A DNA stretch of 64,000 bases from Candidatus Segetimicrobium genomatis (lineage in GTDB: Bacteria > Sysuimicrobiota > Sysuimicrobiia > Sysuimicrobiales > Kaftiobacteriaceae): the NCBI GenBank assembly GCA_005882335.1, contig VBAP01000008.1:346-64345 (forward strand), read 5' to 3'. The first letter of the stretch is position 1. Every line of letters starts with the position of its first letter. Below, piece after piece: positions 781 through 50,858 of the stretch. The translations under genes were made by a program, and so were the position numbers. The notes below the pieces were generated by a model that did not search any database, was not told where the DNA came from, and saw nothing but the letters and a program-made list of their open reading frames with translations.

Positions 781-880
781 TCCGTGAATCTACGCAATCT
801 TCGCGATCGACGCAATCGCGCAATCTCAATACTCCATTACGAACGTTTCCGTCTTCGGATCGCGTAGATTGCGTAGATTG
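781..880. repeat. Intergenic hairpin element (E1beta-E2 spacer). The left arm is tandem TACGCAATC-like words, and the right arm is their reverse complements (GATTGCGTA).
   Basis: Arms at 781-817 and 845-880. Confidence 0.7.
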
Positions 881-892
881 AGCAGATTCGTT

Positions 893-1876
893 TCAATAGG
901 CTGCCAGTTTGCGGATCGACGCGGCGATCTTGCCCCGGCTGATGGAAAACCATTCTTCAAGAGGCTTCGCAAACGGGATGCCGGGGACATCCGGTCCGGC
1001 CAGCCGCATCACCGGGGCATCCAGATCGAAGAACGCCTCTTCGGCGATGCGCGCGGCGATCTCCGCGCCATAGCCCAGGAACTGGTTATCCTCGTACACA
1101 ATCAGCGCGCGGTTGGTCTTGGCGACGGATTTCAAGATGGTGGCGGTGTCCAGCGGTGCCAGCGTGCGGATATCCACGACCTCCACCTCGATGCCCTCCC
1201 TGGCCATCTCCTCGGCCGCCGCCAACGACTCGCTCAGCATCCAGCCATACGCGAAGAGTGACAGATCCCTGCCCGGCCGGCGGACCACAGCAGGGCCGAT
1301 CGGCACCGTGTAGTCACCGTCGGGCACTTCGCCGCGCACGATCCGGTACATGCGCTTATGCTCCAGGAACAACACAGGGTCGGGATCGCGGATGGCCGCC
1401 TTGAGCATCCCCTTGGCATCGTACGGAGTGGAGGGCGCCACGACCTTCAGACCCGGGACATGCGCGTAAAAGGCCTCGATCGATTGAGAGTGGTACAACG
1501 CGGTGCCGTGCGACCCGCCGTACGGCGCCCGGAACACCACCGGGCAGCCATACACGCCATTGGAACGGTACCGCATCCGCGCGGCCTCGCTCACGATCTG
1601 GTTGAAGGCGGGGTGAATGAAATCGGCAAACTGAAACTCCGCGATCGGCAGTAGCCCGTTGCACGCCATCCCAATCGCCACGCCGGCGATCGACGACTCG
1701 GCCAGGGGCGTGTCGATGACCCGATCCTCCCCGAACTTTTCGACCAGCCCCATCGTCGCGCCAAACACGCCGCCCTTGCGGCCGACGTCTTCTCCGAGGA
1801 CGAGCACGCGCGCATCCTGCGCCATCTCCTCGTGGTGGGCCTGATTGATCGCATCGATGTACCGGATCTCGGCCAT
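893..1876 (-). CDS. 2-oxoacid dehydrogenase E1 component beta subunit (transketolase-like C-terminal domain)
   Basis: 327 aa with GEDVGRKGGVFGAT, ESSIAGVAIGMA and PYGGSHGTALYHSQS motifs typical of PDH/BCKDH/acetoin DH E1beta. Confidence 0.9.
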   Translation of the reverse strand: MAEIRYIDAINQAHHEEMAQDARVLVLGEDVGRKGGVFGATMGLVEKFGEDRVIDTPLAESSIAGVAIGMACNGLLPIAEFQFADFIHPAFNQIVSEAARMRYRSNGVYGCPVVFRAPYGGSHGTALYHSQSIEAFYAHVPGLKVVAPSTPYDAKGMLKAAIRDPDPVLFLEHKRMYRIVRGEVPDGDYTVPIGPAVVRRPGRDLSLFAYGWMLSESLAAAEEMAREGIEVEVVDIRTLAPLDTATILKSVAKTNRALIVYEDNQFLGYGAEIAARIAEEAFFDLDAPVMRLAGPDVPGIPFAKPLEEWFSISRGKIAASIRKLAAY

Positions 1877-1884
1877 GGGGCTCT

Positions 1885-2904
1885 CTACTCCTCGAAGAAC
1901 AGGTGCCGCCTCGCGGTGTCCGGTTGTGGCAGAGGCGCGCGGTCGGCTTCGTCGGTGGCCGTGTCAATATCCCGCCGGATACGCTCCGCAATGTCTTTGA
2001 GCGTGCTCTCGTTCAGCAGGCCGACGCGCTCCAGGTAGGCGCGGAACGTCAGGAGGGGATCGCGCTTGCGGACCTGTTCCAGCTCCTCGCGAGAGCGGTA
2101 CCGCTCCTGCTGATCATCACTGCTGTGCGATCCAAGGCGGGGAACGCGGTATTCGATCAACGTCGGACCCTCGCCGCGCCTGGCGCGATCGTAAGCCTCC
2201 TTGGCCACGCGGTAACACTCCAACACATCACTCCCGTCCGCGGTCACGCCCGGCATGCCGTACCCGGCGGCCCGGACGGCCACGCTGGGGACCGCCATCT
2301 GCTTGCGCAGAGGAACCGAGATCGCCAGTTCGTTGTTCTCGACGATGAGGAGCACAGGGCATTTGTGAATGGCGGCAAAGTTCAACGCCTCGTGCCAGTC
2401 CCCCTGGCTGGTGCCGCCCTCGCCGATGCTGACCATGGTGATCTCACCGGTCCGGCGGAGCTTGCTCGCGTAGGCAATCCCCACCGCATGCGGGTATTGC
2501 GTTCCAACGGGGCTGCTCGTGGAAAGGATCTTAAACCTCGGGTGGCCGTAGTGCCCGGGCATCTGCCGGCCGCCGCTGCTGGGATCGGTCGCGCGGGCAA
2601 ACAGCCCCAGCAGCATGTCTGTCACCGTCATACCCTTGACCAGACAGGCGGCCACCGAGCGGTAGAAGGGGACGAACCAGTCTTGCTTCTTGTCCATCGG
2701 CCACATCGCGGCGACCTGGCAGCCTTCGTGCCCCGGGCCGGAGATCACGAACATCGCCTTGCCGGCACGCTGCAGGACCCACATCCGGTCGTCCAGCCCG
2801 CGGGCCAGGGCGATGTAGTAGTACATCTCCAGGACGTCCTGGTCGGACAGTCCCAGCGCCCGGTGCCGGGCTTCCACTGTAGTGTTGGCCTCAGCGCTCA
2901 CCAC
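1885..2904 (-). CDS. 2-oxoacid dehydrogenase E1 component alpha subunit (TPP-binding)
   Basis: 339 aa with a TPP-binding region (SIGEGGTSQGDWHEALNFAAIHKCPVLLIVENNELAIS). It is adjacent to E1beta. Confidence 0.9.
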   Translation of the reverse strand: MVSAEANTTVEARHRALGLSDQDVLEMYYYIALARGLDDRMWVLQRAGKAMFVISGPGHEGCQVAAMWPMDKKQDWFVPFYRSVAACLVKGMTVTDMLLGLFARATDPSSGGRQMPGHYGHPRFKILSTSSPVGTQYPHAVGIAYASKLRRTGEITMVSIGEGGTSQGDWHEALNFAAIHKCPVLLIVENNELAISVPLRKQMAVPSVAVRAAGYGMPGVTADGSDVLECYRVAKEAYDRARRGEGPTLIEYRVPRLGSHSSDDQQERYRSREELEQVRKRDPLLTFRAYLERVGLLNESTLKDIAERIRRDIDTATDEADRAPLPQPDTARRHLFFEE

Positions 2905-2922
2905 GCCGCCCCCTTCCCCTTG

Positions 2923-3018
2923 CGCGTCCGTGCGTCCATTGCGTCTATCGCGTCCATTGCGTCTCCGTGTGGCCTTTTACCGCAACGGACGCAAGAAGAC
3001 GCGAGAGACGCGACGACG
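2923..3018. repeat. Intergenic hairpin element (lpd-E1alpha spacer). GCGTCCATTGCGTCT words on the left, complementary GACGC-containing words on the right.
   Basis: Arms at 2923-2967 and 2982-3018. Confidence 0.65.
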
Positions 3019-3024
3019 TGTTTA

Positions 3025-4428: not shown

Positions 4429-4450
4429 CGCTGGGATGTCCTCCGTGCGT

Positions 4451-8288: not shown

Positions 8289-8930
8289 TTAGACCCGCTC
8301 TCCCAGCCCGAGGCCTTCGGCATCCTTCTGTCGCTCTTTGGCGACCTCCACCAGCCACGGCGGGTCCTGGTAGACGTAGTCCTTGCGGAGGGGATGCCCG
8401 ACCCAATCGTCGGTCATCATGATGCGGCGTAGGTTGGGGTGCCCGTCGAAGGTGATCCCCAGCAGGTCGTAGGCTTCGCGCTCGTGCCAGTTCGCGCCAT
8501 CCCACACCCCGCTGACCGAGGGAATGTGGGCATCGTCGCGCGGGATGCGCACCTTGAGAGCAAGTTCCTGTCGCGTCTGGTGCGAGTACAGATGGTAGAG
8601 CACTTCCAGCTCGTTGCGGTCCGGCCAGTCAACGGCGCTGACGAATGAGAGGTACGTCAGCCCAAACTCGGGATCCCCGGCGAGCGTCGTGCACACGGGC
8701 AGCAGCTTCTCCCGCGGCACGTAGACGCCTGGGGTCAGGTACTGCGGCGGCACCTCGTGTGCGGGACGGCGCGGCGCGGCCGGCGTACTCTCAGGCGCCG
8801 CCGTAACCTGCTCACCGGAGCCGGTCCCCGGTCCCTGGTCCCTGGTCCCTGCGGGTTCCGTGCCCGCCCGCGGGAAGAGTTCCACGTCGGGGAAAGCGGC
8901 CTTCAGCTTTTCCGCCAGCGCCCAACTCAT
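8289..8930 (-). CDS. nuoC: NADH-quinone oxidoreductase subunit C (30 kDa subunit)
   Basis: 213 aa with the 30-kDa-subunit signature NWHEREAYDLLGITFDGHPNLRRI. Confidence 0.85.
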   Translation of the reverse strand: MSWALAEKLKAAFPDVELFPRAGTEPAGTRDQGPGTGSGEQVTAAPESTPAAPRRPAHEVPPQYLTPGVYVPREKLLPVCTTLAGDPEFGLTYLSFVSAVDWPDRNELEVLYHLYSHQTRQELALKVRIPRDDAHIPSVSGVWDGANWHEREAYDLLGITFDGHPNLRRIMMTDDWVGHPLRKDYVYQDPPWLVEVAKERQKDAEGLGLGERV

Positions 8931-14496: not shown

Positions 14497-14959
14497 CCTC
14501 GCTTGTCGCTTTCGCCTCCACCTTGCCGCGAGCCGACTCGAATTCCTCTACCCCCTGATCCAGGGCCACCCAGGCCAGCGTCGCACACTTGATGCGCACC
14601 GGGAATTTGCGCACGCCCTGCAACGCCATCAGGTCGCCCAGCTCCTCTTCCGGAACATCCTCCCCATGCATCATCGCCTTGAACTGCCCGACCAGGGCTC
14701 TGGCCTCGCGCAGCGTCTTGCCCTTGATCTGGTCGGTCATCATCGAGGCCGACGCCTGGCTGATAGAACACCCCCGCCCGACGAAACGCACGTCGGAGAT
14801 CCTGCCGCCGGTGAGCTTCACGTAGACAGAGAGTTCGTCCCCACACAGCGGGTTGGCGCCTTCCACCGTGATGTCGGCGCCGTCAATGGTGCCCTTGTTC
14901 CGGGGGCGGGTGTAATGATCGAGGATCACTTCGCGGTACAGATCGTCAAGCGCCATCAC
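14489..14959 (-). CDS. sufU: SufU/IscU-type Fe-S cluster scaffold
   Basis: 156 aa with conserved cysteines (NPLCGDE and GCSISQAS) and KCATLAW. Confidence 0.85.
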   Translation of the reverse strand: MMALDDLYREVILDHYTRPRNKGTIDGADITVEGANPLCGDELSVYVKLTGGRISDVRFVGRGCSISQASASMMTDQIKGKTLREARALVGQFKAMMHGEDVPEEELGDLMALQGVRKFPVRIKCATLAWVALDQGVEEFESARGKVEAKATSEVE

Positions 14960-14960
14960 G

Positions 14961-15080
14961 GTCTCCCCAGTCTTCTCAGTCTACCCAGTCTTCTCAGTCT
15001 ACCCCGCCATTCACGGCTCGTCAAAATAGACTAGGCAGTAGACTGGGAAGACCGGGTAGACCGGGAAGACCGGGTAGACT
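14961..15080. repeat. Intergenic hairpin element (sufS-sufU spacer). (CAGTCTTCT/CAGTCTACC)n on the left and (GTAGACTGG/GAAGACCGG)n on the right.
   Basis: Arms at 14961-15004 and 15038-15080. The predicted stem is over 40 bp. The right arm abuts the sufS stop codon. Confidence 0.75.
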
Positions 15081-16324
15081 TAGCGTTGGACCGGCGCCGG
15101 CCTGGGCGAAAATAGTTTGCGCGCCACGTGAAGTCCACGCACCAGGGCGTCGATGTCACTCTCATTATTGTACAGGTACAGGCTGGCCCGCGTCGTGGCC
15201 GCGACACCCAGCCGTCGATGCAGGGGCTGCGCGCAGTGGTGGCCGGCCCGCACGGCGATGCCTTCCTGGTCCAGCACCTGCGCCACATCGTGCGGGTGCG
15301 CCACGTCTGTCGCGAAGGCCACCACCCCGCCCCGGCGGGCCAGCTGCCTCGGCCCAAAGAGCGTCACGCCCTCCACCTCGGCGAGCCGCCGCAGGGTGTA
15401 GTCGGTCAGGCGCTGTTCATGGGCCCGGATCGCCGCCATGCCGATTCCCTGCAGGTAGTCTACGGCCTCTCCCAGCACGATGCAGTCCGCAATGCTCGGG
15501 GTCCCCGCCTCGAACTTGTGCGGCGGGTCCTTATATGTGGATGATTCCAACTGCACGAGCATGATCATCTCTCCACCGCCGTGGAACGGAGGCATGGCGT
15601 CCAGCAGGTCATAGCGCGCCCACAACACACCGGCCCCAGTGGGGCCGCACATCTTGTGGCCGGAGAAGGCGACAAAGTCTGCACCCAGGTCGCTCACGCT
15701 GACCGGCATGTGCGGGACGCTCTGCGCGGCGTCGACGAGGACGGTCGCGCCGGCGGCGTGCGCGGTCATCGCGATCTCTTTGATGGGGTTGATCGTCCCC
15801 AGCACGTTGGACTGATGCGTGACCGCCACCAGCTTCGTGCGCTCCGACAGCAGGCGCTGGTACTCGTCCAGCTGCAGGATCCCCTGGCCGTCGAACGGGA
15901 TGAATCTCAGCTTGGCCTGCTTTTCTGCCGCCAGCAGCTGCCAGGGGACGAGGTTGCTGTGATGCTCCATCTCGGTGAGGATGATCTCGTCGCCGGCGCG
16001 GATGTTGGCCCGGCCCCAGGCGTAGGCCACCAGGTTAATGGCTTCGGTCGTGCTGCGGGTGAAGACTACTTCTTCGGGCCGCGTCGCACCGATGAATGCG
16101 GCGATCTTCCCGCGCGACTGCTCGTACCGCATCGTGGCTTCTTCGGCAATCCGGTAGATGCCGCGGTGGATGTTGGCGTTGTACTCCTGGTAGTAGCGCC
16201 CCAGCGCGTCGATGACCCGCCGCGGCTTCTGCGAGGTCGCCGCGCTATCGAGATAGACGAGTGGCTTCCCGTACACGGTCTGCTTCAAGATGGGGAAGTC
16301 CTCGCGAACCCGCTCCGTCATCAT
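15080..16324 (-). CDS. sufS: Cysteine desulfurase SufS (class II aminotransferase). The start was trimmed to MMTERVREDFPIL.
   Basis: PLP lysine in SGHKMCGPTGAGVLW and the catalytic Cys in RAGHHCAQPL. ORF 15080-16411. Confidence 0.88.
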   Translation of the reverse strand: MMTERVREDFPILKQTVYGKPLVYLDSAATSQKPRRVIDALGRYYQEYNANIHRGIYRIAEEATMRYEQSRGKIAAFIGATRPEEVVFTRSTTEAINLVAYAWGRANIRAGDEIILTEMEHHSNLVPWQLLAAEKQAKLRFIPFDGQGILQLDEYQRLLSERTKLVAVTHQSNVLGTINPIKEIAMTAHAAGATVLVDAAQSVPHMPVSVSDLGADFVAFSGHKMCGPTGAGVLWARYDLLDAMPPFHGGGEMIMLVQLESSTYKDPPHKFEAGTPSIADCIVLGEAVDYLQGIGMAAIRAHEQRLTDYTLRRLAEVEGVTLFGPRQLARRGGVVAFATDVAHPHDVAQVLDQEGIAVRAGHHCAQPLHRRLGVAATTRASLYLYNNESDIDALVRGLHVARKLFSPRPAPVQR

Positions 16325-18178: not shown

Positions 18179-18391
18179 CGTCTCCTCCGCACCGGCACTA
18201 CGTTGACGGGTGAAATGTTAAAGGTTGGAGGGCAAAGGCGTTTCCCTTCAACCTCCAACCTCCTGCGCCATGAAACGCGCTACGCTTGATCAGTCAACCG
18301 AGCCCTCCATGCCACCCCGCCTCATCATCCCACAGAGCCTTCCCTGCCACCCCGCGAATTCACAGAACGAATTCGCGGGGACCCCGGCTCA

Positions 18392-21872: not shown

Positions 21873-21957
21873 TCAGTCTGCAGTCGCCAGTCAGCAGTCC
21901 GCAGTCAGGACAGTTTTTTCATCGACTGCCGACTGCAGACCGGAGACTGCCGACTCG
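21873..21957. repeat. Intergenic hairpin element. (CAGTCGC/CAGTCAG)n, a TTTTTT-containing loop, then (GACTGCC/GACTGCA)n.
   Basis: Arms at 21873-21908 and 21921-21957. Confidence 0.7.
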
Positions 21958-21958: not shown

Positions 21959-22174
21959 TCATTCTGCAAGGATCTCCCGCACCCGATGCTCCAGCGACTC
22001 GAGTGCGGCGCGCAGGCGCTGATACTCGGCCTGCTGTGCGGTGGAGAGGGACACCGCGACCGCCGTCTGATCGAGCGCGCGACGAATCTCATCCACCTGC
22101 GCCAGCAGCCTGCTGCGCAGATCGCCGGCGGACGGGACAGGCGTGGAGGTCGTCTTGGTGGAATCTTGGTCCAT
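21959..22174 (-). CDS. Small hypothetical coiled-coil protein (71 aa)
   Basis: An ORF in the divergent region between the deaminase gene and the E1alpha gene. There is no obvious SD, so support is weak. Confidence 0.25.
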   Translation of the reverse strand: MDQDSTKTTSTPVPSAGDLRSRLLAQVDEIRRALDQTAVAVSLSTAQQAEYQRLRAALESLEHRVREILAE

Positions 22175-23275: not shown

Positions 23276-23287
23276 ACGCTGAAAGAC

Positions 23288-23445
23288 GGGAACGGGGGAA
23301 TGCGGGAACTGGGGAACGCGATACCGCGAACGTTTCCCTAGGGCTTCTGCGCGTTCCCGCGTTCCGCCCCGAGCGCGCGAAGCGCGCGTGGGGGTTCCCG
23401 CGCTCCGCCCCGAGCGCGCGAAGCGCGCGTGGGGGTTCCCGCGAT
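23288..23445. repeat. Two tandem copies of a roughly 43-bp unit (CCGCCCCGAGCGCGCGAAGCGCGCGTGGGGGTTCCCGCG), each with an internal CGCGCG-AAG-CGCGCG palindrome. A complementary GGGAACG-word arm lies upstream.
   Basis: E1alpha-E1beta spacer. Copies at 23357-23400 and 23400-23442. Confidence 0.7.
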
Positions 23446-25810: not shown

Positions 25811-25907
25811 GCAGTTGGAATGTTGGAGAGTTGGAAAGTTGAAGAGTACACGGCAGAGATCGACGCAATAACTCTCCAACTTTCCAACTCTTCAACTCTT
25901 CAACTGC
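25811..25907. repeat. Intergenic hairpin element between the convergent E2 and nfu genes. (GTTGGAA/GTTGAAG)n on the left and (CTTCAAC/TTCCAAC)n on the right.
   Basis: Arms at 25811-25847 and 25871-25907. It is a candidate bidirectional terminator. Confidence 0.7.
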
Positions 25908-26187: not shown

Positions 26188-26210
26188 TTGGGAATTGCCT
26201 CCCTAAAGAT

Positions 26211-26332
26211 CTAGTGAATAGTGATTAGTGAATAGTGAATAGCTAAGACGTCCGGGCCGGCGGTGGCTATTCACAATTCACCATTCACTATTCACGTTAC
26301 CTATTCACTAATCACTATTCACATCTGCCGCC
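26211..26332. repeat. Intergenic hairpin element. (TAGTGAA/TAGTGAT)n on the left and (ATTCACT/ATTCACA)n on the right, with a GC-rich central spacer.
   Basis: Arms at 26211-26244 and 26266-26332. Confidence 0.75.
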
Positions 26333-30700: not shown

Positions 30701-31059
30701 GATCAGGGTCCCCAGTCTTCATCTGTACTGCCTCCGGTTCCAACGCTTCTCCCGGGCGCTGCCACGTAACACAGGCCGCGGGGCCAATCTTCTACAATAA
30801 TGAGCAAGTTGCGTGCCAGCCCGCGAGGGGACCGTCCGAAGGTCCTAGATCCTGCGCGCAACGTGCCGGCGACTACCAGAGGCTTGCCCTGTCGCGGAGA
30901 TGGCTAGACGGCCGCGCGGAGGGGGAATTTGATATTTACTCAACGGAAATTTGGCGGGGACCAAGCGGAAGGAGATCTTCATCCCTACGGTTGGTAACCA
31001 AGATACTCTACGACGATCGTGCAGGGGGAAGACGAAGCTGCCTACCGCAGTAGGCTCAG

Positions 31060-33470: not shown

Positions 33471-33510
33471 GAAAAAAGAGGAGCAAGGAGCGTGCCACGC
33501 CCGAATGGCC

Positions 33511-33657
33511 GTTGAAACGTTGGAAGGTTGAAGCGTTGGAATGAACCAGCAAGACTGATGAAACCCACGGAACGCGCTGAAGGACTGACAGACTGAAGGT
33601 CTATCGAGTGCCGAAGCGGTATCGCTTCAACGTTTCAACGCTTCAACGTTTCAACGC
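33511..33657. repeat. Intergenic hairpin element. (GTTGAAAC/GTTGGAAG)n on the left and (CTTCAACG/TTTCAACG)n on the right. It uses the same word family as 25811-25907.
   Basis: Arms at 33511-33543 and 33625-33657. Confidence 0.7.
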
Positions 33658-33659
33658 CG

Positions 33660-35042: not shown

Positions 35043-36536
35043 TCAGGCCGTCTCCGGCACGGTGATGGCCTCGTCGTCCGCCCCAAGCGGACGCAGGTCG
35101 CCGGCCTGGAGGCAGGCCAGCAGGGCGCTGATCACCTGCGGGTCGAACTGCGTCCCTCGCCCTCGTTCCAGTTCGGCCAGCGCCTGCGGCAGCGGCATGG
35201 CCACGCGGTACGGACGGGTATGGGTCATGCTCTCCAGCGCGTCGATGCCAGCCAGGATGCGCGCCTCCACGGGGATCTGGTCGCCGCTCAGACCAAGAGG
35301 ATAGCCCGCGCCATCGAATCGCTCATGATGGAACAAGACCGCTTCAACCACCCGCGGCGGAAAATCCGCCATCGCCAGGATCTTCGCCCCCATCAGCGTG
35401 TGGGTCTTCATCCAGTCATATTCCTCAGCGGTCAGGTCTCCAGGCTTGCGCAAGACGCCATCGTCGATGCCAATCTTGCCGATATCGTGGAGCAGCGCGG
35501 CAGTTTTCAAATCCTCCAGACGATCTGATGGCAAGCCCATCCGCGTGCCAATCGCGACCGCATACTGCACGACACGATCAGAGTGGAAACGCGTGGGCTG
35601 ATCGCGCAGATCCACCGTCGCCGCCAGCGCATAGACTGTGTTCCAGTACGAGCGGCGCAGACGGCGGAACAGCCGGATATTCTCGATGGCGATCGCGCCT
35701 TGCGCGGCGATGACCCGCAGGACATCGCGGTCGGCGCCCGCAAACGGCGCACTGGGCCGCGTCGCCGTCAGGACGCCTACGACGTTGCCCGCCAACTGCA
35801 GCGGGACTGAGAGCACCCGGCCCCCGTCATCGGCGGTGGCCTCGGGGATGCCGTCCTTCCCCAGCAGGTCTTCCGGCGCCACCCTCCACGAGGCCGACAA
35901 CTTGACCGCGTCCGCGTGGCCGGTCGCGGCCACGGCCGCGCCGTCCCCCGCCTCGGATGCGGTGACCATCAGTTCCTGTCCATCCTCGTCCAGCGCGACC
36001 AGTGTGACGCTGTGCGCATTGAGTTCGTGCAGCACCGTCTCGGTGATAATCTGAAAGACCCGGCCCTGATCAACGTCTCCCAGCCGGTTGCCGCGCAGAT
36101 CCAGCAGTGGCTGCAGCGCCCGCAGCCGGGTGTTGCGCTTGAAGAACAACCCCTTGCGCAGGCCTTCCTCCACCGTCTTGCGCAGGTCGTCGGGTGTGAA
36201 CGGTTTCATCAGGAACCCGTTCACACCGAGCTTCACGGTCTCCAGCAGGTTGTCAAACTCGCTGAAACCGGTCATGACCACCACGGAGACGTCCGGCGTC
36301 TCCGCCACGATCTGGCGGGCAGCCTCGAGCCCGGTCATGCCGGGCATGCGGATATCGGTGAGCAGGAGATCCGGGGTCTGCGCACGGGCCATGGTGATCG
36401 CGGTGGGACCGTCGGGAGCAGGGCTGACCTCGTAGGTCCGGCCGAGAATACGGACGCACAGCTCCCGAATGGACGCTTCATCATCGACAACGAGAATTCT
36501 GGCTCTGGGGAGCACCATCGACTCCTTGTCGTTCAT
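35043..36536 (-). CDS. Response regulator with REC, GAF and HD-GYP phosphodiesterase domains. The start was trimmed to MNDKESMVL.
   Basis: REC Asp pocket (LLTDIRMPGMTG), and HD-GYP motifs HDIGKIGI and HHERFDGAGYP. ORF 35043-36620. Confidence 0.8.
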   Translation of the reverse strand: MNDKESMVLPRARILVVDDEASIRELCVRILGRTYEVSPAPDGPTAITMARAQTPDLLLTDIRMPGMTGLEAARQIVAETPDVSVVVMTGFSEFDNLLETVKLGVNGFLMKPFTPDDLRKTVEEGLRKGLFFKRNTRLRALQPLLDLRGNRLGDVDQGRVFQIITETVLHELNAHSVTLVALDEDGQELMVTASEAGDGAAVAATGHADAVKLSASWRVAPEDLLGKDGIPEATADDGGRVLSVPLQLAGNVVGVLTATRPSAPFAGADRDVLRVIAAQGAIAIENIRLFRRLRRSYWNTVYALAATVDLRDQPTRFHSDRVVQYAVAIGTRMGLPSDRLEDLKTAALLHDIGKIGIDDGVLRKPGDLTAEEYDWMKTHTLMGAKILAMADFPPRVVEAVLFHHERFDGAGYPLGLSGDQIPVEARILAGIDALESMTHTRPYRVAMPLPQALAELERGRGTQFDPQVISALLACLQAGDLRPLGADDEAITVPETA

Positions 36537-36625
36537 ACGGCGCGTATAACCTCGCACCGGGTGCGGGTTCTCTCGCATCGCCATCCTAGAGCAAGTTTCG
36601 TGCCAGGCCTTTCCAAACAAAAAGG

Positions 36626-36737
36626 CGTCTTCAATGTCTCCAAGGTCTTCCGGGTCTCCCAGGTCAAGCCGAGTCTCATCGGGCGTAAGCAGGTAGACCC
36701 GGAAGACTTAGTAGACATGGTAGACCTTGTAGACGCA
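36626..36737. repeat. Intergenic hairpin element. (GTCTTCA/GTCTCCA/GTCTTCC)n on the left and (GTAGACC/GAAGACT/GTAGACA)n on the right.
   Basis: Arms at 36626-36662 and 36693-36737. Confidence 0.7.
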
Positions 36738-36746: not shown

Positions 36747-38111
36747 TCATCCGGTCTCCGCCGAAATGTTGTGCTCCTGGATTCTTGTTTGGAGGGCGGC
36801 ACGGTCGATTCCCAGGACCCGTGCGGCCTCGTCCAGGTTCCACGCGGTCATCTTCAGGACCGCGTGGATATGCCGGCGTTCGACTTCACCAAGCGAGAAC
36901 GCCTTCGGGAACTTCGCCCCCGGGGACGGCTGTTCGTCCAGCCAGATCTCCTCGGTGTCGATGAGTTCCCCGGTGGCCAGAATGACCACGCGCTGGACGG
37001 TGTACTCCAGCTCGCGGACGTTGCCCGGCCAGTGGTGGCTACGCAGTCTCTTCATCGCCGCCGGAGTGAAGCCTTTGATCCGCTTGCCGAACGCCACCGC
37101 GTACTTGTTCAGGAAGTGGTAGGCCAGCACGTGGATATCCTCTTTGCGATCGCGCAGCGCCGGCAACTCCAGCGGCATGACGGCCAGCCGGTAGTAGAGG
37201 TCCTCCCGGAACCGGCTGTCGCCGATCGCCTTCTTGAGATCTTTGTTGGTGGCTGCCACGACGCGGGCGTTGACATCGATGGGCTTGTTGCCGCCAACGC
37301 GCTCGATGACCCGCTCCTGGAGCACGCGCAGCAACTTCACCTGCATCGACAAGCTCATGTCGGCGATCTCATCCAGGAAGACCGTGCCGTCTTGGGCGCG
37401 CTCAAACCGGCCGACATGGCTGGTGATCGCGCTGGTGAATGCGCCCTTCTCGTGGCCGAAGAGTTCCGTCTCCAGCAGCGTCTCGGGGATCGCTCCGCAG
37501 TTCACCACCACAAACGGGCCGTTGGCGCGCGGGCTCTGGAAGTGGATGGAGCGGGCCAGCAACTCTTTACCGGTGCCCGTCTCCCCGTAGATCAGCACGG
37601 TGGCATCGGTCGGCGCGACGGCGGACGCCAGCCGCAACACGTCGCGCATCTTTGGAGATTCCCCGACGATCCCCTCGAACTTGAATGTCCGCATCAGTTC
37701 CTGTTGCAGCGCCCGGTTCTCTTGCATCAGGCGGCTGCGTTCCAGCGCCTGGTTCACTACAATCATCAACTCTTCAGGGCGGAAGGGCTTGCCGACATAA
37801 TGGTAAGCGCCAAGCTTGATGGCCTGGATGGCGGTGTCGATCGTCGAAAACGCGGTGATGATGATGACCAGCGCGTCGGGGTTGTGCTCCTTGATCGACC
37901 GCAGCACGCTCATGCCATCGAGCTTGGGCAGCTTGAGGTCGAGGAGCACGAGATCGTAGCGGCCGGCCTTGTACTTGGCCAGCCCTTCTTCGCCGTCGAC
38001 CGCGGTCTCGACCGCGTAGCCGTCTTCGCGAAGAATCCTGATCAGCAAATTCCGGAGGTTCTCCTCGTCGTCGACGACGAGGATGGACGTGCCATCGGTG
38101 ACCATCAGCAC
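36747..38111 (-). CDS. Sigma54-dependent transcriptional activator (NtrC/FleQ-like: REC, AAA+ and Fis HTH)
   Basis: 454 aa with [15 protein letters not shown] (Walker A), the GAFTSA-type sigma54 contact motif (GAFTSAIT) and a C-terminal HTH. Confidence 0.9.
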
Positions 38112-38190
38112 TCTCTTCTTGGGCCGAAATGGGGGTCCTGCGGAGTTATACCTCTTCCGCGGGGAGGCTAGACGCTATGCAAAGCGTAGC

Positions 38191-38265
38191 CACTATCCAG
38201 TAACCAGTCGCCAGTCAATTCCTGAACTGTTTCTGGCGACTGGTGACTGGCTACTGGTGACTGCT
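38191..38265. repeat. Intergenic hairpin element. (CAGTAAC/CAGTCGC)n on the left and (GGCGACTGG/TGACTGG)n on the right.
   Basis: Arms at 38191-38216 and 38234-38265. Confidence 0.65.
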
Positions 38266-38373
38266 GTGAAAAAGCCCCGCCGTCCCTCTCCGTGCGGGCG
38301 GCGTCGCAGCGTCCCCCCTGAGGTTCGCCTGCACCCGGCTCCCGCGTTCGGAGTACAGAGACGGCGGGGAATC

Positions 38374-38739
38374 CTATCGTTTCCCGATCGTGATAACCCT
38401 TCCGAGCTTCGCTGCCACCGCTGCTAGCGCGGCCGGCGGAAGCTCCCGCACTGTGGTCCTGGTCTGGACGTCGACGACCCGCACGACCAGGCGGCGGGTT
38501 CGCTCATCAACGGCCAACTCCGCGATGAGGCGCGCGGACGGCGTGCGCAGGGTATCCTGCGCAAGTTCCGCGCCGGGGCCGGACGGCCCCATCCCAGACT
38601 GGTTCGCAGAACCTGGCAGAGCCAGCGCGTCGGCGATCACCGGCTCCAGCTGGAGCCGTGACGTCAGCGCCCGGCGCGCGCGCTCGAAGAGGTTGACGAA
38701 GTCACTGCCGCCCGAGGTGGAAGGCGTGAGCGTATCCAT
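38374..38739 (-). CDS. flaG: FlaG-family protein. The start was trimmed to MDTLTPS.
   Basis: The C-terminal LVVRVVDVQTRTTVRELPPAALAAVAAKL matches the FlaG signature (VvkVvD.eTgEvIRqiPpee). Confidence 0.55.
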   Translation of the reverse strand: MDTLTPSTSGGSDFVNLFERARRALTSRLQLEPVIADALALPGSANQSGMGPSGPGAELAQDTLRTPSARLIAELAVDERTRRLVVRVVDVQTRTTVRELPPAALAAVAAKLGRVITIGKR

Positions 38740-39125
38740 CAATTCAGCCGGGCCTGCGCCCGTGAGGTGCTGGCCGACGCGATCGCCGCCAGGGCAGGGG
38801 CCAGGACCCGCTCCGACCACAACGTGCGGTTGGCGCGCTCCACCGCGCCGAGGCCGCGGACCAGCGTGGCGATCTGCCGCGTGAACGTGGCCACATCCGG
38901 AACGTTTGTGGAAGTCTTGTGGCGCAGCTGACGGCGTCTGGCTTCCAGATCCCGCAGGGTGACGATATAGGCGGCTTCCAGCACGGCCAGGTCTGCGGCT
39001 TCGTCAAAGCGGCCCTGCTTCAGCAGCAGGTGCCGGGAGCGCGCCAGCCGCAGCAGTTCGCGGTGCACGGCCAACTCACGTTCTAGAATCTGGCGAAGCT
39101 GTCCGGCCGTGGAGCCCATGTGCAT
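38739..39125 (-). CDS. FlgN/FliT-like flagellar export-chaperone-like helical protein. The start was trimmed to MHMGSTAG.
   Basis: Helical, with leucine heptads (QLRQILERELAVHRELLRLARSRHLLLKQGRFDEAADL). Its position next to flaG supports the call. The family assignment is tentative. Confidence 0.35.
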   Translation of the reverse strand: MHMGSTAGQLRQILERELAVHRELLRLARSRHLLLKQGRFDEAADLAVLEAAYIVTLRDLEARRRQLRHKTSTNVPDVATFTRQIATLVRGLGAVERANRTLWSERVLAPALAAIASASTSRAQARLN

Positions 39126-39281
39126 GACACCTCGGACGTCACCAGGAAGAAGCCAGTCTGTAATGAGGAGCAATTCCTGTGCCACGTGGGCAGAATGCCG
39201 GGGCCAAGGGACCGGGGGACCAAGGGACCACGCAGCCATGTCTGCCTGGTCCCTTGGCTGCCTGGTATCTGCTCCCGTTGT

Positions 39282-39618: not shown

Positions 39619-39652
39619 TTCCGGCCGTATCAGGACATCAGGACTGGTAGTG

Positions 39653-39690
39653 ACGAGGGGGTCCATCTGGACCCCCTCGTTGTGTTCCTC
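39653..39690 (+). terminator. Rho-independent-type terminator after peptide gene 1. It is a 12-13 bp perfect palindrome (CGAGGGGGTCCA / TGGACCCCCTCG) followed by a T-rich tail (TTGTGTT).
   Basis: Read directly from the sequence. Confidence 0.5.
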
Positions 39691-42842: not shown

Positions 42843-42969
42843 ACGCGGTCGCGCAGTCACGCGGTCGCGGCACTCCTCTCAGCACGCGCGTATTCGGACG
42901 CGACCGCCTGACCGCTGCACCGCCCGACCGCCGTAGTTGTCGCGCGACTGCCTGACCGCGCGACCGCCG
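42843..42969. repeat. Intergenic hairpin element. (CGCGGTCGCG/CAGTCACG)n on the left and (CGCGACCGCC/TGACCGC)n on the right.
   Basis: Arms at 42843-42870 and 42899-42969. Confidence 0.65.
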
Positions 42970-42990: not shown

Positions 42991-43890
42991 GTGACCGCGA
43001 TCGCCGCCCTGAAGGCCTTTTTCTCCCACGAACGAGACGTCGCCGCCGTCTACCTGTATGGGAGATATGCCGACGAACGCACCTGGCCGGACAGCGACAT
43101 CGAGGTCGCCATATTGTTTTCGGACCGGGTCGGCGAAGATGAGGCCAGCAGTTACCTGGAACGCCTCTCCGCGGCCAACCCGCTGGCCGACGCTCCGGGG
43201 ATTCTGATGCCCTTCGCGCTGAACACCCACATCCTGCCGGTGATCCACGAGATCCTCAGCGGCGGGGATGTCCTCGTGGCGAATGATCCCGAAGCGACGG
43301 AGGCCTTTGCCAGATGGGCCGGTGCGCGGCTGGAGAACGAGCGAACGGCGTTGCTCGACGACGCCAAGGAGTCAATCCTGCAGGCCCGCAATCTCGGACT
43401 GGGGCTGCTCGGCAGCCCCGGGTTTGTGCTGCCGCAAACGCCGCGTCTTCTCGATCCGCTCCGCATCGGATGGCGCCTGGCCCGGATTCTAGGCTCCTCC
43501 GCAGTGATCGAGGCCTCCACCCGAGACAGCGAGGCAGCGGGGAGAGACCCCGAGTCGCTGGGCCAGTTGATCGGATGGTTCAGCAACGGGGCCGGCGCAG
43601 CGACCGGGATCGCGAAAGCCATGCTCAACATCATTGGTCTGCCGCGGCCCAGCCGTCGGTGGGAGGTCTTCCTGCCGCTGGCGGATGAAAAACTCGTGAC
43701 GATGGATCTGGCGCTGCAGCTGGGGGCCGCCGTGGAGGCCAGGTGGCAACTCCTCACCGGCAGCGGGCTGGCAGCGCCGGAGCGGATCGCCACCTCGATC
43801 CGAGCTTCGCTGCCGCCGATCCTGTCGTTTGCGCGTCTGGCGGCGTGGTACTGTGAAGTGCCGGGCGGGCGCGACCAGAAACTGCACTAA
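42991..43890 (+). CDS. Nucleotidyltransferase-domain protein (Pol-beta-like NTase N-terminus)
   Basis: GTG start. It has VYLYGRYADERTWPDSDIEVAILF, matching the GS-x-D-x-D NTase motif. Confidence 0.55.
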   Translation: MTAIAALKAFFSHERDVAAVYLYGRYADERTWPDSDIEVAILFSDRVGEDEASSYLERLSAANPLADAPGILMPFALNTHILPVIHEILSGGDVLVANDPEATEAFARWAGARLENERTALLDDAKESILQARNLGLGLLGSPGFVLPQTPRLLDPLRIGWRLARILGSSAVIEASTRDSEAAGRDPESLGQLIGWFSNGAGAATGIAKAMLNIIGLPRPSRRWEVFLPLADEKLVTMDLALQLGAAVEARWQLLTGSGLAAPERIATSIRASLPPILSFARLAAWYCEVPGGRDQKLH

Positions 43891-43893: not shown

Positions 43894-43983
43894 GGACGGG
43901 CAGTCGCGCTGTCGGGCAGTCGCGGAACAGCGCAACGGTGGGTATCCGCGACCGCGCGACCGCCTGACTGCGCGACCGCAGCG
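43894..43983. repeat. Intergenic hairpin element. (GGGCAGTCGCG)n on the left and (CGCGACCGC/CTGACTGCGCGACCGC)n on the right. Same word family as 42843-42969.
   Basis: Arms at 43894-43925 and 43945-43983. It lies between the convergent NTase and LuxR genes. Confidence 0.65.
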
Positions 43984-47005: not shown

Positions 47006-47127
47006 AGGCCTCGCCTCCTATCATGTATTGTACTCCTGCCCGGGTGCCGGCGATCCGAGGCGGCCGAATGGCAGGGGCCTGATGCCCGGAGATGGGGACA
47101 CGGGTCCTATCACGAGGCCCCGGCCCA

Positions 47128-48922: not shown

Positions 48923-49054
48923 TAGAAGGGGATTGCTTCGCGGAAACCCCCGCGTGCCGTGTGGAGTTCCGCTCGCAATGGCCCGCCGCTAGTCAACCTC
49001 GCGATCGGAGGGGATCGCTTCGCTCCGCTCGCGATAACCCGCGCTGCGCGCGGG

Positions 49055-50614
49055 TTACTTCCACGTCGCGTAGATCGCGTCCCACTTCTCAATGGGCGTG
49101 ATGGAGACGCCCTCCAGGTTCTTCACCGTCGCCACGTACCAATTCTGCGCCCACAGGAAGATCCACGGGGCGTCGTTCCAGATCTGTTCCTGGGCGTCGC
49201 GGTACAGCGTCTTCCGCTTTTCCACATCCACCGTGGTACGGGCTTCGTCCAGCCAGGTATCCACCTGCGTGTTCGCATAGAATGCCGGGGCCAGCCCGCG
49301 CGGTGGGTGTTGGGAGGAGTGGAACTGGCCGAAGAGGACCCCGTCGCAGTCGAGCACCACCCATGCCCACCCCAGCACGAACATCTGCAGCCGGGTGCGA
49401 TCCGGCGGCGCGGTGATCTCGGCAACGTAGCTGGGCCATTCCATCGTGCTGACCGATGCACGAATACCCACATTGCGCAGCTGTGCGGCCACGGCCTGCG
49501 CGAACTGGAAGTCCTGGATGTAGCGGCCGGTTGGGGTAAAGAAGTTGATCTCGAAGCCATTGGGATAGCCCGCCTCGACCAGCAACTGTTTGGCCTTGAT
49601 CGGATTGAACGGCCACCCGCCCGCCTGCACCGGACCGTGTCCGAACATCCCGGCCGGACAGGGTGAGTCCACCACCGTGCCCAGGTCAAACAGGACACTG
49701 TTGAGGATGGCCCGCTTGTTGATCGCGTAGTTGAACGCCTGCCTGACGCGCGTGTCGCGGAGCGGTCCCCACTGGGTGTTCAACCCGATGAAGATGACGC
49801 GGTCGGTCGGCGCCTGCACCAATGTGACAGTGGGATTCTGCCGGAGCCGGCGGACATCTGGGGCAGGCGGGAGCATGACCATGTGCACGTCGCCGGCCAG
49901 GAGCATCGTTTCGCGCGTCCCGGCATCGGGTACCACTCGGAACATGACCTCGTCAAAGACCGGAGCCTTGCCCCAGTAACTCGGGGAACGGGTCACCAGA
50001 ATGTGCGTACCGCGCACCCACTCTTTGAACGCGTACGGCCCGGTCCCAGCCCCGGTCGCGTCGCGCACCAGATTCGCAGCGCCAATTTTCTGCGCCGCAA
50101 CCGGCGAGATGATCGCGGTGGTGGTGTAGGTCAGGTTGCTGAGGAACGTCGGGCTGGGCTTGCTCAGCTGAAAGCGCACGGTGGACGCGTCGAGCACCTG
50201 CACCTCTTTGATCGCATCCACCAGGAAGCGCAACGGCACCCGCGTCTTGAGATCCAGCAGCCGGTCAAACGTAAACTTCACCGCCTCGGCGTCAAACGGG
50301 GTGCCATCCTGGAACGTCACGCCCTCCCGGAGCCGGAACAGGTAGGTCAGCCCGTCCCGGCTGACCGTCCAGCTCGTGGCCAACTGGGGCGCCACCTTGC
50401 CGGCGGCGTAGTCGGCGCGCACCAGCGTCTCATAGACATAATCCACCATATTGGCCACGGTCGTCGTCGTCTGACCGGCGGGATCCAGGGTGTCGGCGTC
50501 GATCCCTACGGCGATCCGCAGCGTCTTGGGTGGACCCTGCGCCTGCACCGCCGCCCCGGTCGCCGCCATCAGCGCCGCGACGATCAGCAGCGCGCCCGCA
50601 CGCATCTGTCCCAT
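49055..50614 (-). CDS. ABC transporter substrate-binding protein, family 5 (peptide/nickel). The start was trimmed to MGQMRAG.
   Basis: Signal peptide, SD AGGAG upstream, and an SBP_bac_5-like body. Confidence 0.85.
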   Translation of the reverse strand: MGQMRAGALLIVAALMAATGAAVQAQGPPKTLRIAVGIDADTLDPAGQTTTTVANMVDYVYETLVRADYAAGKVAPQLATSWTVSRDGLTYLFRLREGVTFQDGTPFDAEAVKFTFDRLLDLKTRVPLRFLVDAIKEVQVLDASTVRFQLSKPSPTFLSNLTYTTTAIISPVAAQKIGAANLVRDATGAGTGPYAFKEWVRGTHILVTRSPSYWGKAPVFDEVMFRVVPDAGTRETMLLAGDVHMVMLPPAPDVRRLRQNPTVTLVQAPTDRVIFIGLNTQWGPLRDTRVRQAFNYAINKRAILNSVLFDLGTVVDSPCPAGMFGHGPVQAGGWPFNPIKAKQLLVEAGYPNGFEINFFTPTGRYIQDFQFAQAVAAQLRNVGIRASVSTMEWPSYVAEITAPPDRTRLQMFVLGWAWVVLDCDGVLFGQFHSSQHPPRGLAPAFYANTQVDTWLDEARTTVDVEKRKTLYRDAQEQIWNDAPWIFLWAQNWYVATVKNLEGVSITPIEKWDAIYATWK

Positions 50615-50650
50615 GTTGCGCGTCCCTCCTTGCGCGGCACGTGCGCGAGA

Positions 50651-50858
50651 TTGGTGATTCGTGATTCGAAAACCATCATGGTGTGAAGCGATGCTGGGAC
50701 GTATCACAAAATCACGAATCACGCCCTGCTTTGATACGGGACTCCCGGCACCCATACCTGCCGCCCCCCAGAAAACGCACGAGATCCGGGAACTGGGATC
50801 CGAGTGAGCAGGCACCTGCCGTCTCGGATCCCTGATCCCGGATCCCGTATCCCGCGGG
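50651..50858. repeat. Two hairpin elements in one spacer. (TGATTCG)n / (CGAATCA)n lies at 50651-50725. A nested palindrome, GGGATCCGAG-GCAGGCACCTGC-CTCGGATCCC, followed by a (GATCCC)n tail, lies at 50783-50858.
   Basis: Read directly from the sequence. Spacer between the SBP gene and the STAS gene. Confidence 0.65.

Follow-up and report, generated by a model that had tools for sequence, protein, structure and literature searches.

The window examined here, meaning the whole 64-kb stretch of DNA, carries a real and recurring class of tandem-word hairpins that is defined by its architecture and in which the words are specific to the site. Sixteen spacers with such hairpins were catalogued between positions 784 and 50856, which upholds the claim of an initial annotation that at least 14 spacers share a mirror-hairpin design. 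One arm repeats a word of 7, 8 or 9 nt in tandem, with 2.5–8 copies per arm, and is followed, after a loop, by an array of the reverse complement. Stems are 25–45 bp long, and the loops span about 4–125 nt rather than the 10–80 nt first proposed. An inverted-repeat scan together with TRF recovered the paired arrays at 787/858, 2931/2988, 14961/15038, 21874/21923, 23287/23437, 25813/25870, 26212/26267, 33511/33623, 36627/36693, 38190/38233, 39200/39239, 42845/42941, 43897/43947, 50649/50701 and 50779/50825, and a sixteenth, short element (p) was added at 18220–18266. Identity from arm to arm is 87% (361 of 417 aligned positions); double units within an arm are 94–100% identical, against 86–87% between arms.

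A shuffling comparison of the kind suggested with the initial annotation, run on the window, gave 12–15 elements against 0–1 in shuffled copies: a purpose-built detector (a periodic arm of at least three units and its reverse complement within 170 nt) found 12 against none in each of 20 dinucleotide shuffles, and a relaxed version found 15 against 0–1 per block shuffle (10 shuffles, two hits altogether). The background of the relaxed detector in 1.87 Mb of unrelated bacterial loci is 0.21 per 10 kb, and the density in the window is about 2.3 per 10 kb. RNA folding energies range from -25 to -116 kcal/mol, with z-scores of -2.8 to -10.6 for 15 of the 16 elements, and a comparison with Rfam returned no match for them. 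A further array, (GGTCCCN)4 at 8819–8854, was rejected as a member, being an unpaired repeat inside a coding region.

That the hairpins are artefacts of assembly or sequencing is a next to negligible possibility. The DNA evidently comes from a metagenome-assembled genome, in which repeats can be put together wrongly, but the suggested comparison with relatives (L numbers) found homologous elements or elements of the same architecture at orthologous sites in independent NCBI, JGI and Logan assemblies (m in L082, p in L022, and one element common to L001 and L087), with presence varying by site, and intact conserved genes flank the elements.

Words and gene context of the elements

Gene starts in the window were called crudely. 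Element a (784–893; period 9; AATCTACGC / GCGTAGATT, 4.4 and 3.4 copies; dG -44.3, z -5.7) belongs to a 2-oxoacid dehydrogenase operon on the minus strand, where it fills the spacer from the E1beta stop (893) to the E2 start (~774). Element b (2928–3021; period 9; TGCGTCCAT / GACGCAAT-type) is of the same word family and sits between lpd, which stops at 3025, and E1alpha, which starts at 2904; the arms of a and b are the most similar of all (score 32). This lpd-E1alpha context had been named correctly at the outset, as had the sufS-sufU spacer, where element c (14958–15083; period 9 (18); CAGTCTWCY / GTAGACYGG, about 4.8 copies per arm; dG -79.1, z -10.6) overlaps the sufS stop (15080–15082) and holds the sufU ribosome-binding site (GGGGAG) and GTG start (14959) within the base of its 3' arm. 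The short element p, with 2–3 units of GGAGGTT / AACCTCC, shares the sufB-sufD spacer with an adjacent plain GC hairpin and is conserved with positions 2959–3010 of L022. Element d (21874–21957; period 7 (14); CAGTCNN / NNGACTG, about 5 copies) begins 1 nt past the stop of a conserved 71-aa gene (21959–22174, minus strand), upstream of an adenosine deaminase gene. Between an E1alpha stop (23275) and E1beta lies element e (23284–23462; period 8; GGGGAACN x4 and GTTCCCGC/GATCCCNC; dG -115.9), whose 3' arm is broken by a 41-nt unit (x2.3, 23353–23447) that carries its own GC hairpin. Element f (25811–25907; period 8 (16); AGTTGGAA / TTCCAACT, about 4.4 copies; z -9.8) is found 2 nt past an E2 stop (25808) and overlaps the stop (25900) of the convergent Nfu_N gene, and element g (26210–26325; period 7), with unequal arms of TAGTGAA (4.4 copies) and CTATTCA (8.1 copies), separates the stop (26363) of a gene for an 811-aa SdrD_B-domain protein from the Nfu_N start (26187). 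Element h (33508–33658; period 8 (16); CGTTGAAR / YTTCAACG; loop about 81 nt) starts 1 nt past the stop of rpoN (33660), and about 10 nt separate its far end from a downstream sigma-54 promoter (33483–33497, minus strand).

Element i (36625–36736; period 9 (18); GTCTNCNNN / NNNGNAGAC) is placed 10 nt past the stop (36747) of an NtrC-type activator gene (36747–38111); downstream of it come TTTTTGTTT on the sense strand and then a sigma-54 promoter (36591–36605, minus strand). Element j (38187–38266; period 7 (14); CCAGTNR / CTGGYNA) directly follows a canonical hairpin-plus-U terminator (38270–38300, minus sense) upstream of the NtrC-type gene. Element k (39196–39272; period 8; GGGACCNN / NNGGTCCC), the sole member in a divergent spacer, lies ~12 nt upstream of a sigma-54 promoter (39170–39184, minus strand). 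Elements l and m share a word family: l (42843–42969; period 8; GCRGTCRC / GYGACYGC) lies 10 nt past a response-regulator stop (42832) and before a Pol-beta-type nucleotidyltransferase gene, and m (43894–43979; period 8; GCAGTCGC) starts 3 nt past the stop of the latter (43890), between it and a convergent GerE-family gene. Element o (50779–50856; period 7; GGGATCC / GGATCCC) is located 7 nt past the stop (50864) of a STAS-domain gene, with GTTTTCT next on the sense strand, and element n (50645–50722; period 7; GTGATTC / GAATCAC) forms the second hairpin of the same STAS-domain/SBP_bac_5 gene spacer, followed by a ribosome-binding site, AAGGAGGG, on the minus strand.

The suggested clustering of the words yields about six recurring families within the window, and the recurrences listed in the initial annotation are right: GTTGGAA at 25811 and 33511, and CAGTCGC at 21873, 38191, 42843 and 43894. 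Of 120 arm pairs, 20 score above the 95th percentile of the shuffled null, with 6 expected; a CAGTC core occurs in five elements, at periods of 7, 8 and 9; and word sharing is more frequent between elements separated by less than 3 kb than between distant ones (permutation p = 0.03). The words also appear at non-orthologous loci of relatives, GGATTGC in L001 and L082 and GTCTAC in the window, L086 and L091, and a GGGATC word is common to the window, L001 and L087. Such families, the sharing among neighbours and at non-orthologous loci, and the variable presence at orthologous sites could point to small non-autonomous mobile families of a REP/REPIN- or MITE-like kind, in which a gene in another part of the genome would supply, in trans, a nuclease or transposase that recognises the word cores (CAGTC, GTCTAC, GGGATC, GGATTGC, GTTGRA and GACGCAAT). 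GTAG or CGTC tags mark the REP super-families, and the words here include GTAGAC and GACGC. We nevertheless consider mobility distinctly improbable: no loop or full-length consensus is common to any two elements, one core occurs with three different periods, the comparison of filled and empty sites gave no target-site duplication or clean boundary, and there is no transposase or Y1 nuclease among the genes of the window.

Placement past stop codons and possible function

The distance to the upstream stop codon lies between -4 and +37 nt in 13 of the 16 elements and is within 10 nt in 11. Sites within operons, between convergent genes and in promoter regions had been described, and all three occur, but unevenly: 15 of the 16 lie downstream of a gene, in spacers of the co-directional or convergent type, and one is in a promoter-only divergent spacer, the other divergent spacers of the window being empty. 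Placement this tight behind stop codons suggests a role or an origin at transcript 3' ends and not a promoter element. We tentatively favour a reading, plausible if short of probable, in which these long imperfect hairpins lie in presumably transcribed spacers and serve as generic 3'-end or intercistronic structures with stems grown by unit slippage and inverted copying. Such a hairpin would need no U-tract to make RNA polymerase pause or terminate; it would also hold off 3'-to-5' exonucleases and shield promoters lying downstream, and its function would rest on the stem, not on the word. Pausing or termination, exonuclease blocking and insulation are the role ascribed to REP/BIME elements in enterobacteria. 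Most elements do lack a U-tract, as initially stated, with one only at i and o and weakly at g. Between 20 and 40 kb the canonical hairpin-plus-U terminators number 6 where 9.9 would be expected; this lack of enrichment makes it plausible that hairpins without a U-tract are the usual form here.

Some observations count against the 3'-end reading. Several elements lie within operons (sufS-sufU, E1alpha-E1beta), where termination would be harmful, and the hairpin of element c buries the downstream ribosome-binding site. The clustering of words is likewise adverse, since word families would not be expected if the role were purely structural and each element arose locally de novo. Stem mismatches display no sense-strand excess of G·U over the antisense strand (14 versus 11), and 31 of 56 are transversions, so selection at the RNA level is not detectable; rapid turnover would leave little time for such selection.

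Elements h and i each lie precisely in the gap that separates a stop codon from a conserved sigma-54 promoter. Of the window's four perfect sigma-54 promoters, three are preceded at 10–25 nt by an element, which covers the usual activator-site zone. The arrays might be protein-binding sites on DNA or RNA, such as upstream activator sites of sigma-54 enhancer-binding proteins, heptad operators of ribbon-helix-helix repressors, or sites at which cold-shock or other single-strand binders place one protein on each unit. Their conserved cores and variable linkers do resemble binding-site arrays, and CspB is reviewed as able to occupy direct heptamer repeats, one protein to a unit (PMC4679880). We give this proposal very little credence: each of the three elements at promoters has a word unrelated to the others, L091 lacks element i yet conserves the promoter, twelve other elements are not near sigma-54 promoters, at least six word families in 50 kb would need equally many binders, and a spacing of 7–9 nt does not match helical-repeat phasing.

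Turnover and origin of the stems

Where relatives lack an element, the orthologous spacer is only 0–45 nt long: 28–31 nt at site c (L010 and L006), 45 nt at site d (L022), 4–27 nt at the convergent site f (L001, L002 and L022), and 31 nt in L081 and 40 nt in L084 at site l. Some spacers that are filled in the window correspond to overlapping gene pairs, as at site e, where E1alpha and E1beta overlap in L022 as well as in L001 and have a 13-nt gap in L004. Other relatives hold an element with a different word at the orthologous site (GGATTGC at site g in L001 and at site l in L082 and L083; a GTCTACTTR word at site j in L091), which shows that one tight spacer (0–45 nt ancestrally) can carry different words in sister lineages. 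Element m has a homologue in L082 and a degenerate left arm in L084, and is missing from L081. Site i carries a 2-unit version in L086 and keeps only the remnant CCGGGTAGAC in L091, and L087, L089 and L022 have plain GC hairpins there.

Stems change by whole units, which arms gain or lose, and double units of 14, 16 or 18 nt duplicate within an arm; between sister genomes one arm can differ by a single unit, and one and the same element has three GGGATCA units in an arm in L001 and two in L087. The contig of L091 in which site i is down to one unit, showing that elements can be deleted to a single unit, also holds an element with perfectly mirrored arms and a unique outer stem of 13 nt made from conserved sequence of the flank. 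Young elements are perfect mirrors, and older ones carry one mismatch per period. The flank-derived outer stem fits inverted copying in place, not the insertion of a pre-formed mobile unit. A new element would arise when fold-back or template switching makes an inverted copy, frequently of an element close by, and would then grow by replication slippage, a process that would be strongly amplified in the host lineage. Quasipalindrome template-switch mutagenesis and repeat slippage are established in E. coli genetics. Together they account for arm-to-arm copying, as in perfect young elements and the outer stem, and for whole-unit indels; they are a mutational process and not an element family, and their operation here is deduced from sequence comparisons alone.

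The same dynamics raise the question of whether the hairpins are a non-functional mutational by-product, with unstable inverted repeats expanding through single-stranded DNA hairpins, slippage and template switching under permissive replication or repair and persisting where least harmful, just past stop codons and not in promoters. Fast gain, loss and replacement among relatives, the lineage-specific density, unit-number changes confined to single arms, the larger tandem duplications within element e, an arm length of ~25–45 nt that fits an instability ceiling, and the mismatch pattern (no G·U strand bias, many transversions) all agree with it. We hold it to be unlikely, though not far-fetched, as the number of copies per arm is narrow, about 3–5, instead of following a broad slippage distribution (four units predominate in Xanthomonas too), the elements keep very close to stop codons, at least one element (p) is conserved across about 70–90% protein identity, and relatives have plain hairpins at some element positions.

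Comparison with known systems

The initial annotation knew of no matching structure, and the elements are indeed not canonical terminators, CRISPR, MITE or REP/BIME, but the architecture is not without precedent. The closest published one is the inverted GGGAATC heptamer arrays of Xanthomonas, of which Rehm et al. (2015, PLoS One, PMC4692102) reported 70–75 convergent pairs per genome in two genomes. In X. campestris and X. axonopodis ~90% of the arrays are intergenic, four units per array are commonest, the mean distance is 28 nt from the upstream ORF and much farther from the downstream one, and pairs are rare between divergent genes; they can form stem-loops, have no known function, and vary in length and sequence between close species (PMC4692102). 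Tandem 7-nt units with a nearby reverse-complement array and placement by the upstream ORF are common to both systems, and our G-rich words (GGGATCC, GGGGAACN, GGGACCNN) resemble GGGANTN. Xanthomonas, however, uses essentially one word genome-wide at a 7-nt period only, whereas the window has at least six unrelated families and periods of 7, 8 and 9; most words here lack G-tracts, sister lineages can hold different words in one spacer, and the host, an uncultured Armatimonadota-like lineage, is very distant. Formation of G-quadruplexes or i-motifs, proposed for the Xanthomonas GGGAATC and Nostoc GGGGAYT repeats, is hardly credible for this class. Elements e, k and o each have at least four G3+ tracts in one arm and words resembling the G4-forming heptamers of PMC4692102, but at least 11 of the 16 elements have no G-tracts (e.g. 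TAGTGAA, GTTGAAR, CAGTCNN, GTCTAC), and the complementary arm would compete through duplex formation.

REP, BIME and REPIN elements of enterobacteria, Pseudomonas and Stenotrophomonas have been proposed to stabilise mRNA, to terminate transcription and to make the genes of an operon differ in expression. Like them, the elements are extragenic hairpins in 3' UTRs or intercistronic operon spacers close to stop codons, variably present at orthologous sites and without target-site duplication. REPs are defined as 20–40 bp palindromes with a genome-wide consensus bearing a GTAG or CGTC tag and linked to RAYT (PMC3733652); the elements here have no shared consensus, internally tandem arms, stems of 25–45 bp and no RAYT in the window. 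A stable hairpin directly past the stop codon also recalls the U-less intrinsic terminators and long 3'-end hairpins of high-GC bacteria, a likeness extended by the U-rich tails at i and o and by plain GC hairpins at the same sites in relatives. Unlike these terminators, the elements have far longer stems of repeated units with one mismatch per period, loops of up to 125 nt and many intra-operon positions.

Cyanobacterial STRR heptamers and the TAACTGA repeats of Beggiatoaceae (PMC4679880) are likewise intergenic, lineage-amplified tandem heptamers whose function is not established, but they are overwhelmingly direct arrays without a paired reverse-complement array: the BOGUAY genome has one inverted case among 170 repeat sets (PMC4679880), and Nostoc has few paired heptamer repeats. 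Examples of the same architecture are scattered in Chloroflexota, Rubrobacteraceae, Thermoanaerobaculia and other MAGs, and abutment to the stop codon also holds for the examples in other phyla.

Tandem-word hairpins and their host

The recurring intergenic mirror-hairpins proposed in the initial annotation form a real class. An inverted-repeat scan ranked the proposed sites at the top of 87 pairs, and TRF recovered the corresponding arrays, which repeat every 7, 8 or 9 nt and for which a super-period of 14, 16 or 18 nt often scored better. A purpose-built detector, which looks for one periodic arm and the reverse complement of that arm, recovered 12 elements from the window and nothing from any of 20 dinucleotide shuffles; in a relaxed form it found 15, against two hits in total over 10 block shuffles. 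Applied to 1.87 Mb of unrelated bacterial loci, the relaxed detector returned 0.21 hits per 10 kb, which is an upper bound on the background because about half of these hits were judged by eye to be false positives in GC-rich coding sequence. Two other designs, pairing TRF arrays by consensus and demanding periodicity in both arms, each missed half of the elements and were dropped. Independent assemblies agree, and the elements are no assembly artefact.

The catalogue comprises 16 elements, named a to p and spanning 784 to 50856, including the short extra member p. As in inverted heptamer-SSR pairs, at least two tandem units of about 7 nt (the word) are accompanied by a nearby reverse-complement array on the other strand. 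The arms align to each other with 87% identity, and the stems consist of perfectly paired runs of 5-8 separated by one mismatch per period. When either strand was folded as RNA, energies ranged from -25 to -116 kcal/mol and z-scores from -2.8 to -10.6 (p is left out of the z-score range). No element was matched at the gathering threshold of Rfam 15, where the sole hits were three riboswitches elsewhere in the window. The tandem-word hairpins are real and well characterised at sequence level. A (GGTCCCN)4 heptamer array at 8819-8854 was excluded as a coding-region SSR; it has no inverted partner, falls within the N-terminal linker encoded by a minus-strand NuoC-like (Complex1_30kDa) gene and has the same word as element k (GGGACC).

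The window has a G+C content of 62-68% and carries housekeeping operons (two 2-oxoacid dehydrogenase operons, sufCBDSU and nuo genes) together with an rpoN / response-regulator / NtrC-type cluster with histidine kinases. The three riboswitches are c-di-GMP-I-GGC aptamers on the plus strand (Rfam RF03167, 71-73 bits; 56110-56189, 58621-58701 and 61618-61698), each followed after 60-80 nt by a paralogous gene (56250, 58745 and 61778) that encodes a large secreted-type protein with Big_7 and purple-acid-phosphatase-N domains. This triplicated module adjoins many GGDEF/GAF/PAS signalling genes, and a 357-nt tandem repeat of 2.9 copies with 83% identity (54493-55522) matches three successive PAS domains within a single sensor protein (54308-55657, minus strand).

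Position relative to genes, terminators and promoters

Relative to the stop codon of the gene before it, the element starts at -4 to +37 nt in 13 of the 16 cases, 11 of them at 10 nt or less. Only k occupies a divergent spacer, the remaining divergent spacers being free of elements. Being intergenic, closer to the end of the upstream ORF and rare between divergent genes, the class has the placement of Xanthomonas-type arrays. Element c, in the sufS-sufU spacer, overlaps the sufS stop codon and contains the ribosome-binding site and start of sufU. Element d abuts the stop of a 71-aa ORF, which is a real gene because it is conserved in the comparison loci L022 and L004.

The claim that most elements lack a U-tract was upheld, a U-rich tail being present at i and o, weakly at g and nowhere else; a hairpin exists in all 16, and the class departs from canonical intrinsic terminators in the U-tract. 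A consensus scan of 20-40 kb showed no enrichment of canonical hairpin-plus-U terminators (6 found, 9.9 expected). Such terminators do occur in the genome, at 38270-38300 (minus sense, GGGGCTTTTT) and at 39652-39690 (plus, GAGGGGGTCC..GGACCCCCTCGTTGTGTT). Word-hairpin j comes directly after the former; a terminator and a word-hairpin can thus stand in tandem.

Four perfect sigma-54 promoters (TGGCAC-N5-TTGC) lie on the minus strand in and around the rpoN / RR-GAF-HD / NtrC-type cluster, at 30804-30818, 33483-33497, 36591-36605 and 39170-39184, with conservation in the relatives L085-L089, L091 and L022. Elements h (downstream of rpoN), i and k end 10-25 nt upstream of these perfect, conserved promoters. 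A role of the three as sigma-54 activator sites was rejected as a general explanation, since they use three different words and i is dispensable in L091. The promoter positions indicate that the longest-ORF starts of genes 35043-36620 and 38739-39239 are too far upstream, and three long ORFs in the window run into elements or sigma-54 promoters. In practical terms, the elements break assemblies and distort gene-start calls, and they would serve as useful strain markers.

Stem turnover among relatives

The most informative evidence is the comparison with relatives. An exact-sequence look-up of the SufU protein gave no match, and contigs were gathered instead via homologues of the nucleotidyltransferase flanked by elements l and m. 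The nearest public-genome sequences to the E2 protein belong to unclassified or Armatimonadota-labelled MAGs with at most 75% identity; among metagenome contigs the best identities are 96% (nucleotidyltransferase) and 94% (NtrC-type protein). The nucleotidyltransferase (42991-43890) is a member of the Pol-beta superfamily (PF18765), some of whose homologues carry a DUF86/HEPN annotation; its gene follows a histidine kinase / response regulator pair in all relatives examined and is flanked in the window on both sides by hairpins with the same word.

Where relatives have no element, the genes are tightly packed: the sufS-sufU spacer measures 28-31 nt (L010, L006), E1alpha and E1beta overlap (L022, L001), the convergent E2 / Nfu_N pair is 4-27 nt apart, and the spacers between the 71-aa ORF and adenosine deaminase and between the response regulator and the nucleotidyltransferase are 45 nt and 31-40 nt, respectively. 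The elements are therefore additions of 80-180 nt. Orthologous sites can also hold different words. Upstream of the nucleotidyltransferase, GCRGTCRC in the window corresponds to GGATTGC in L082 and L083 and to no element in L081 and L084; downstream of rpoN, CGTTGAAR corresponds to GGGATCA in L001 and L087, a weak GGGRCC version in L085 and nothing in L022. The long loops at the latter site were considered as a conserved core between changing arms, and the idea was discarded as the alignment shows no loop homology. L001 and L087 have one element in common, the two copies of which differ in one arm by a single 7-nt unit. In L091, whose DNA is 89% identical over the NtrC-type gene, element i has shrunk to one CCGGGTAGAC, and the site of j holds a perfect GTCTACTTR x4 hairpin whose 13-nt outer stem copies conserved flank sequence in inverted form. 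A homologue of element m is present in L082 and a decayed form of it in L084, and p is conserved with L022. Four syntenic 20-kb loci with 75-78% identity gave 0-2 hits each, compared to six or seven in the corresponding part of the window; element density is lineage-specific.

The arms themselves carry traces of the same turnover. Double units within an arm are 94-100% identical, as opposed to 86-87% between arms; copy numbers of the two arms may be unequal, as in g; and in the young elements of L091, L141 and L145 the arms are exactly mirrored. Inside e, a 41-nt unit is repeated 2.3 times with 96% identity (23353-23447), each copy holding a perfect GC hairpin (CCCCGAGCGCGCGAAGCGCGCGTGGGG) and one GTTCCCGC word; this duplication is nested in the word array that separates E1alpha from E1beta, genes which overlap in relatives. 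Together, these patterns point to three processes: elements are probably born by inverted copying, each arm grows or shrinks as units slip or are duplicated in tandem, and point mutation followed by deletion brings decay. Stem birth, lengthening, decay and deletion are visible between genomes that are 75-96% identical in protein sequence, so the relatives form a natural time series for the origin of structured non-coding DNA in bacteria and link microsatellite dynamics to palindrome biology. An unexplained curiosity of Xanthomonas and cyanobacteria is also widened to a general architecture, present at low density in several phyla.

While these evolutionary dynamics are shown, what the hairpins do is inferred. 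Mismatches in the stems show no sense-strand excess of G·U (G·U versus A·C asymmetry, 14 vs 11) and 31 of 56 are transversions, so selection at the RNA level is undetectable. The main rival explanation, by which the hairpins are a non-functional by-product of mutation, strikes us as rather unlikely. The explanation we favour, tentatively, gives the hairpins a generic, REP-like role at 3' ends or between cistrons, with inverted copying and unit slippage building and remodelling the stem. If so, an uncultured Armatimonadota-like lineage would end or partition its transcripts with hairpins assembled locally from short repeated words, and not with a conserved terminator or REP family.

Word families and known repeat systems

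The initial annotation held that the elements match neither CRISPR, MITE nor REP/BIME structures, and this assessment stands. CRISPR arrays alternate regularly between direct repeats of 24-48 nt and unique spacers about as long, unlike the contiguous 7-9 nt units paired here with an inverted array. MITEs have terminal inverted repeats with a target-site duplication and exist in multiple near-identical copies; here no near-identical copies are seen, and comparison of filled and empty sites revealed neither target-site duplication nor clean ends. By the REP-family definition (PMC3733652), a high-copy consensus palindrome of 20-40 bp is expected, whereas among the 16 elements (64 kb) only short word cores recur and no two elements have a common loop or full-length sequence. 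With regard to the GTAG or CGTC tetranucleotide that tags one end of the REP/BIME stem-loop, GTAGAC, GCGTAGATT and GACGC words are present in a, b, c and i, where they are repeated along the arm and are not terminal, and the other 12 have none. No RAYT (Y1 transposase) gene was found among the 40 window proteins scanned with Pfam. An unrecognised mobile family, which ranks next after the by-product explanation, seems very unlikely to us.

The closest described system is that of the GGGAATC heptamer arrays in two Xanthomonas genomes, with 70-75 convergent pairs per genome capable of forming stem-loops (Rehm et al. 2015, PMC4692102). These arrays are about 90% intergenic, lie on average 28 nt from the upstream ORF and are scarce between divergent genes; four units are commonest, they vary between species, and their function was not identified (PMC4692102). 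The Xanthomonas type uses one G-rich word (GGGANTN) genome-wide with G-quadruplex potential, whereas in the window the words belong to six or more families and the periods are 7, 8 and 9, and four G-tracts are restricted to e, k and o. Heptamers of cyanobacteria and Beggiatoaceae are nearly always direct arrays. Our literature search returned only the Xanthomonas/Nostoc and Beggiatoaceae papers, none on multi-word hairpins or on Armatimonadota; it yielded no account of a form with several words and periods, of words being replaced at orthologous sites or of an occurrence in this lineage.

Of 120 arm pairs, 20 score above the 95th percentile of the shuffled null (6 expected), and the families are {a,b}, {f,h,p}, {d,j,l,m, partly c}, {c,i}, {e,k,o} and {g,n}. 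Similarity is higher in pairs whose members are separated by less than 3 kb than in distant ones (permutation p = 0.03), and CAGTC/GACTG occurs at least three times in each of five elements across three different periods. The same families recur at other loci in relatives, and neighbouring same-word pairs are found in unrelated MAGs. The pattern favours new elements being seeded from existing, often nearby ones, or a constraint on usable words. Motifs of restriction or methylation (GATC, GANTC) and GGA cores resembling SD sequences, looked for in the words, give patterns that are partial and post hoc. Arm order (G-rich arm first) follows no universal rule, and because of the symmetry of a hairpin the orientation of an element is undefined.

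A broader reading, in which the elements are a distinct cross-phylum class of bacterial 3'-end element propagating by inverted template-switch seeding from neighbours and unit slippage, appears decidedly unlikely to us. Inverted template switching would then seed new copies from neighbouring elements at a range of about 0.2-3 kb, and these copies would extend themselves through unit slippage, so that structured DNA could spread independently of a transposase. Recurrent cores such as CAGTC, GTCTAC and GGGAWC might stem from a factor dedicated to binding or cleaving them or from a sequence bias in the copying, and a position 0-10 nt past the stop codon could link the hairpins to translation termination or to ribosome release.

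Other phyla provide extreme or perfect examples. About 17 AGACAGG units oppose about eight CCTGAYC units in L079 (1-205), a unique 14-bp hairpin in L141 (2821-2928) is extended at its base by four GCTGCGT units, with perfect complementarity, and a perfect 9-mer-word hairpin with a T-rich loop is found in L145 (283-370). On an unrelated metagenome contig (L097, 4242-4494), a tRNA gene is flanked on both sides by hairpins of the word GTTCACR, a pair of neighbours with one common word that parallels l and m around the nucleotidyltransferase.
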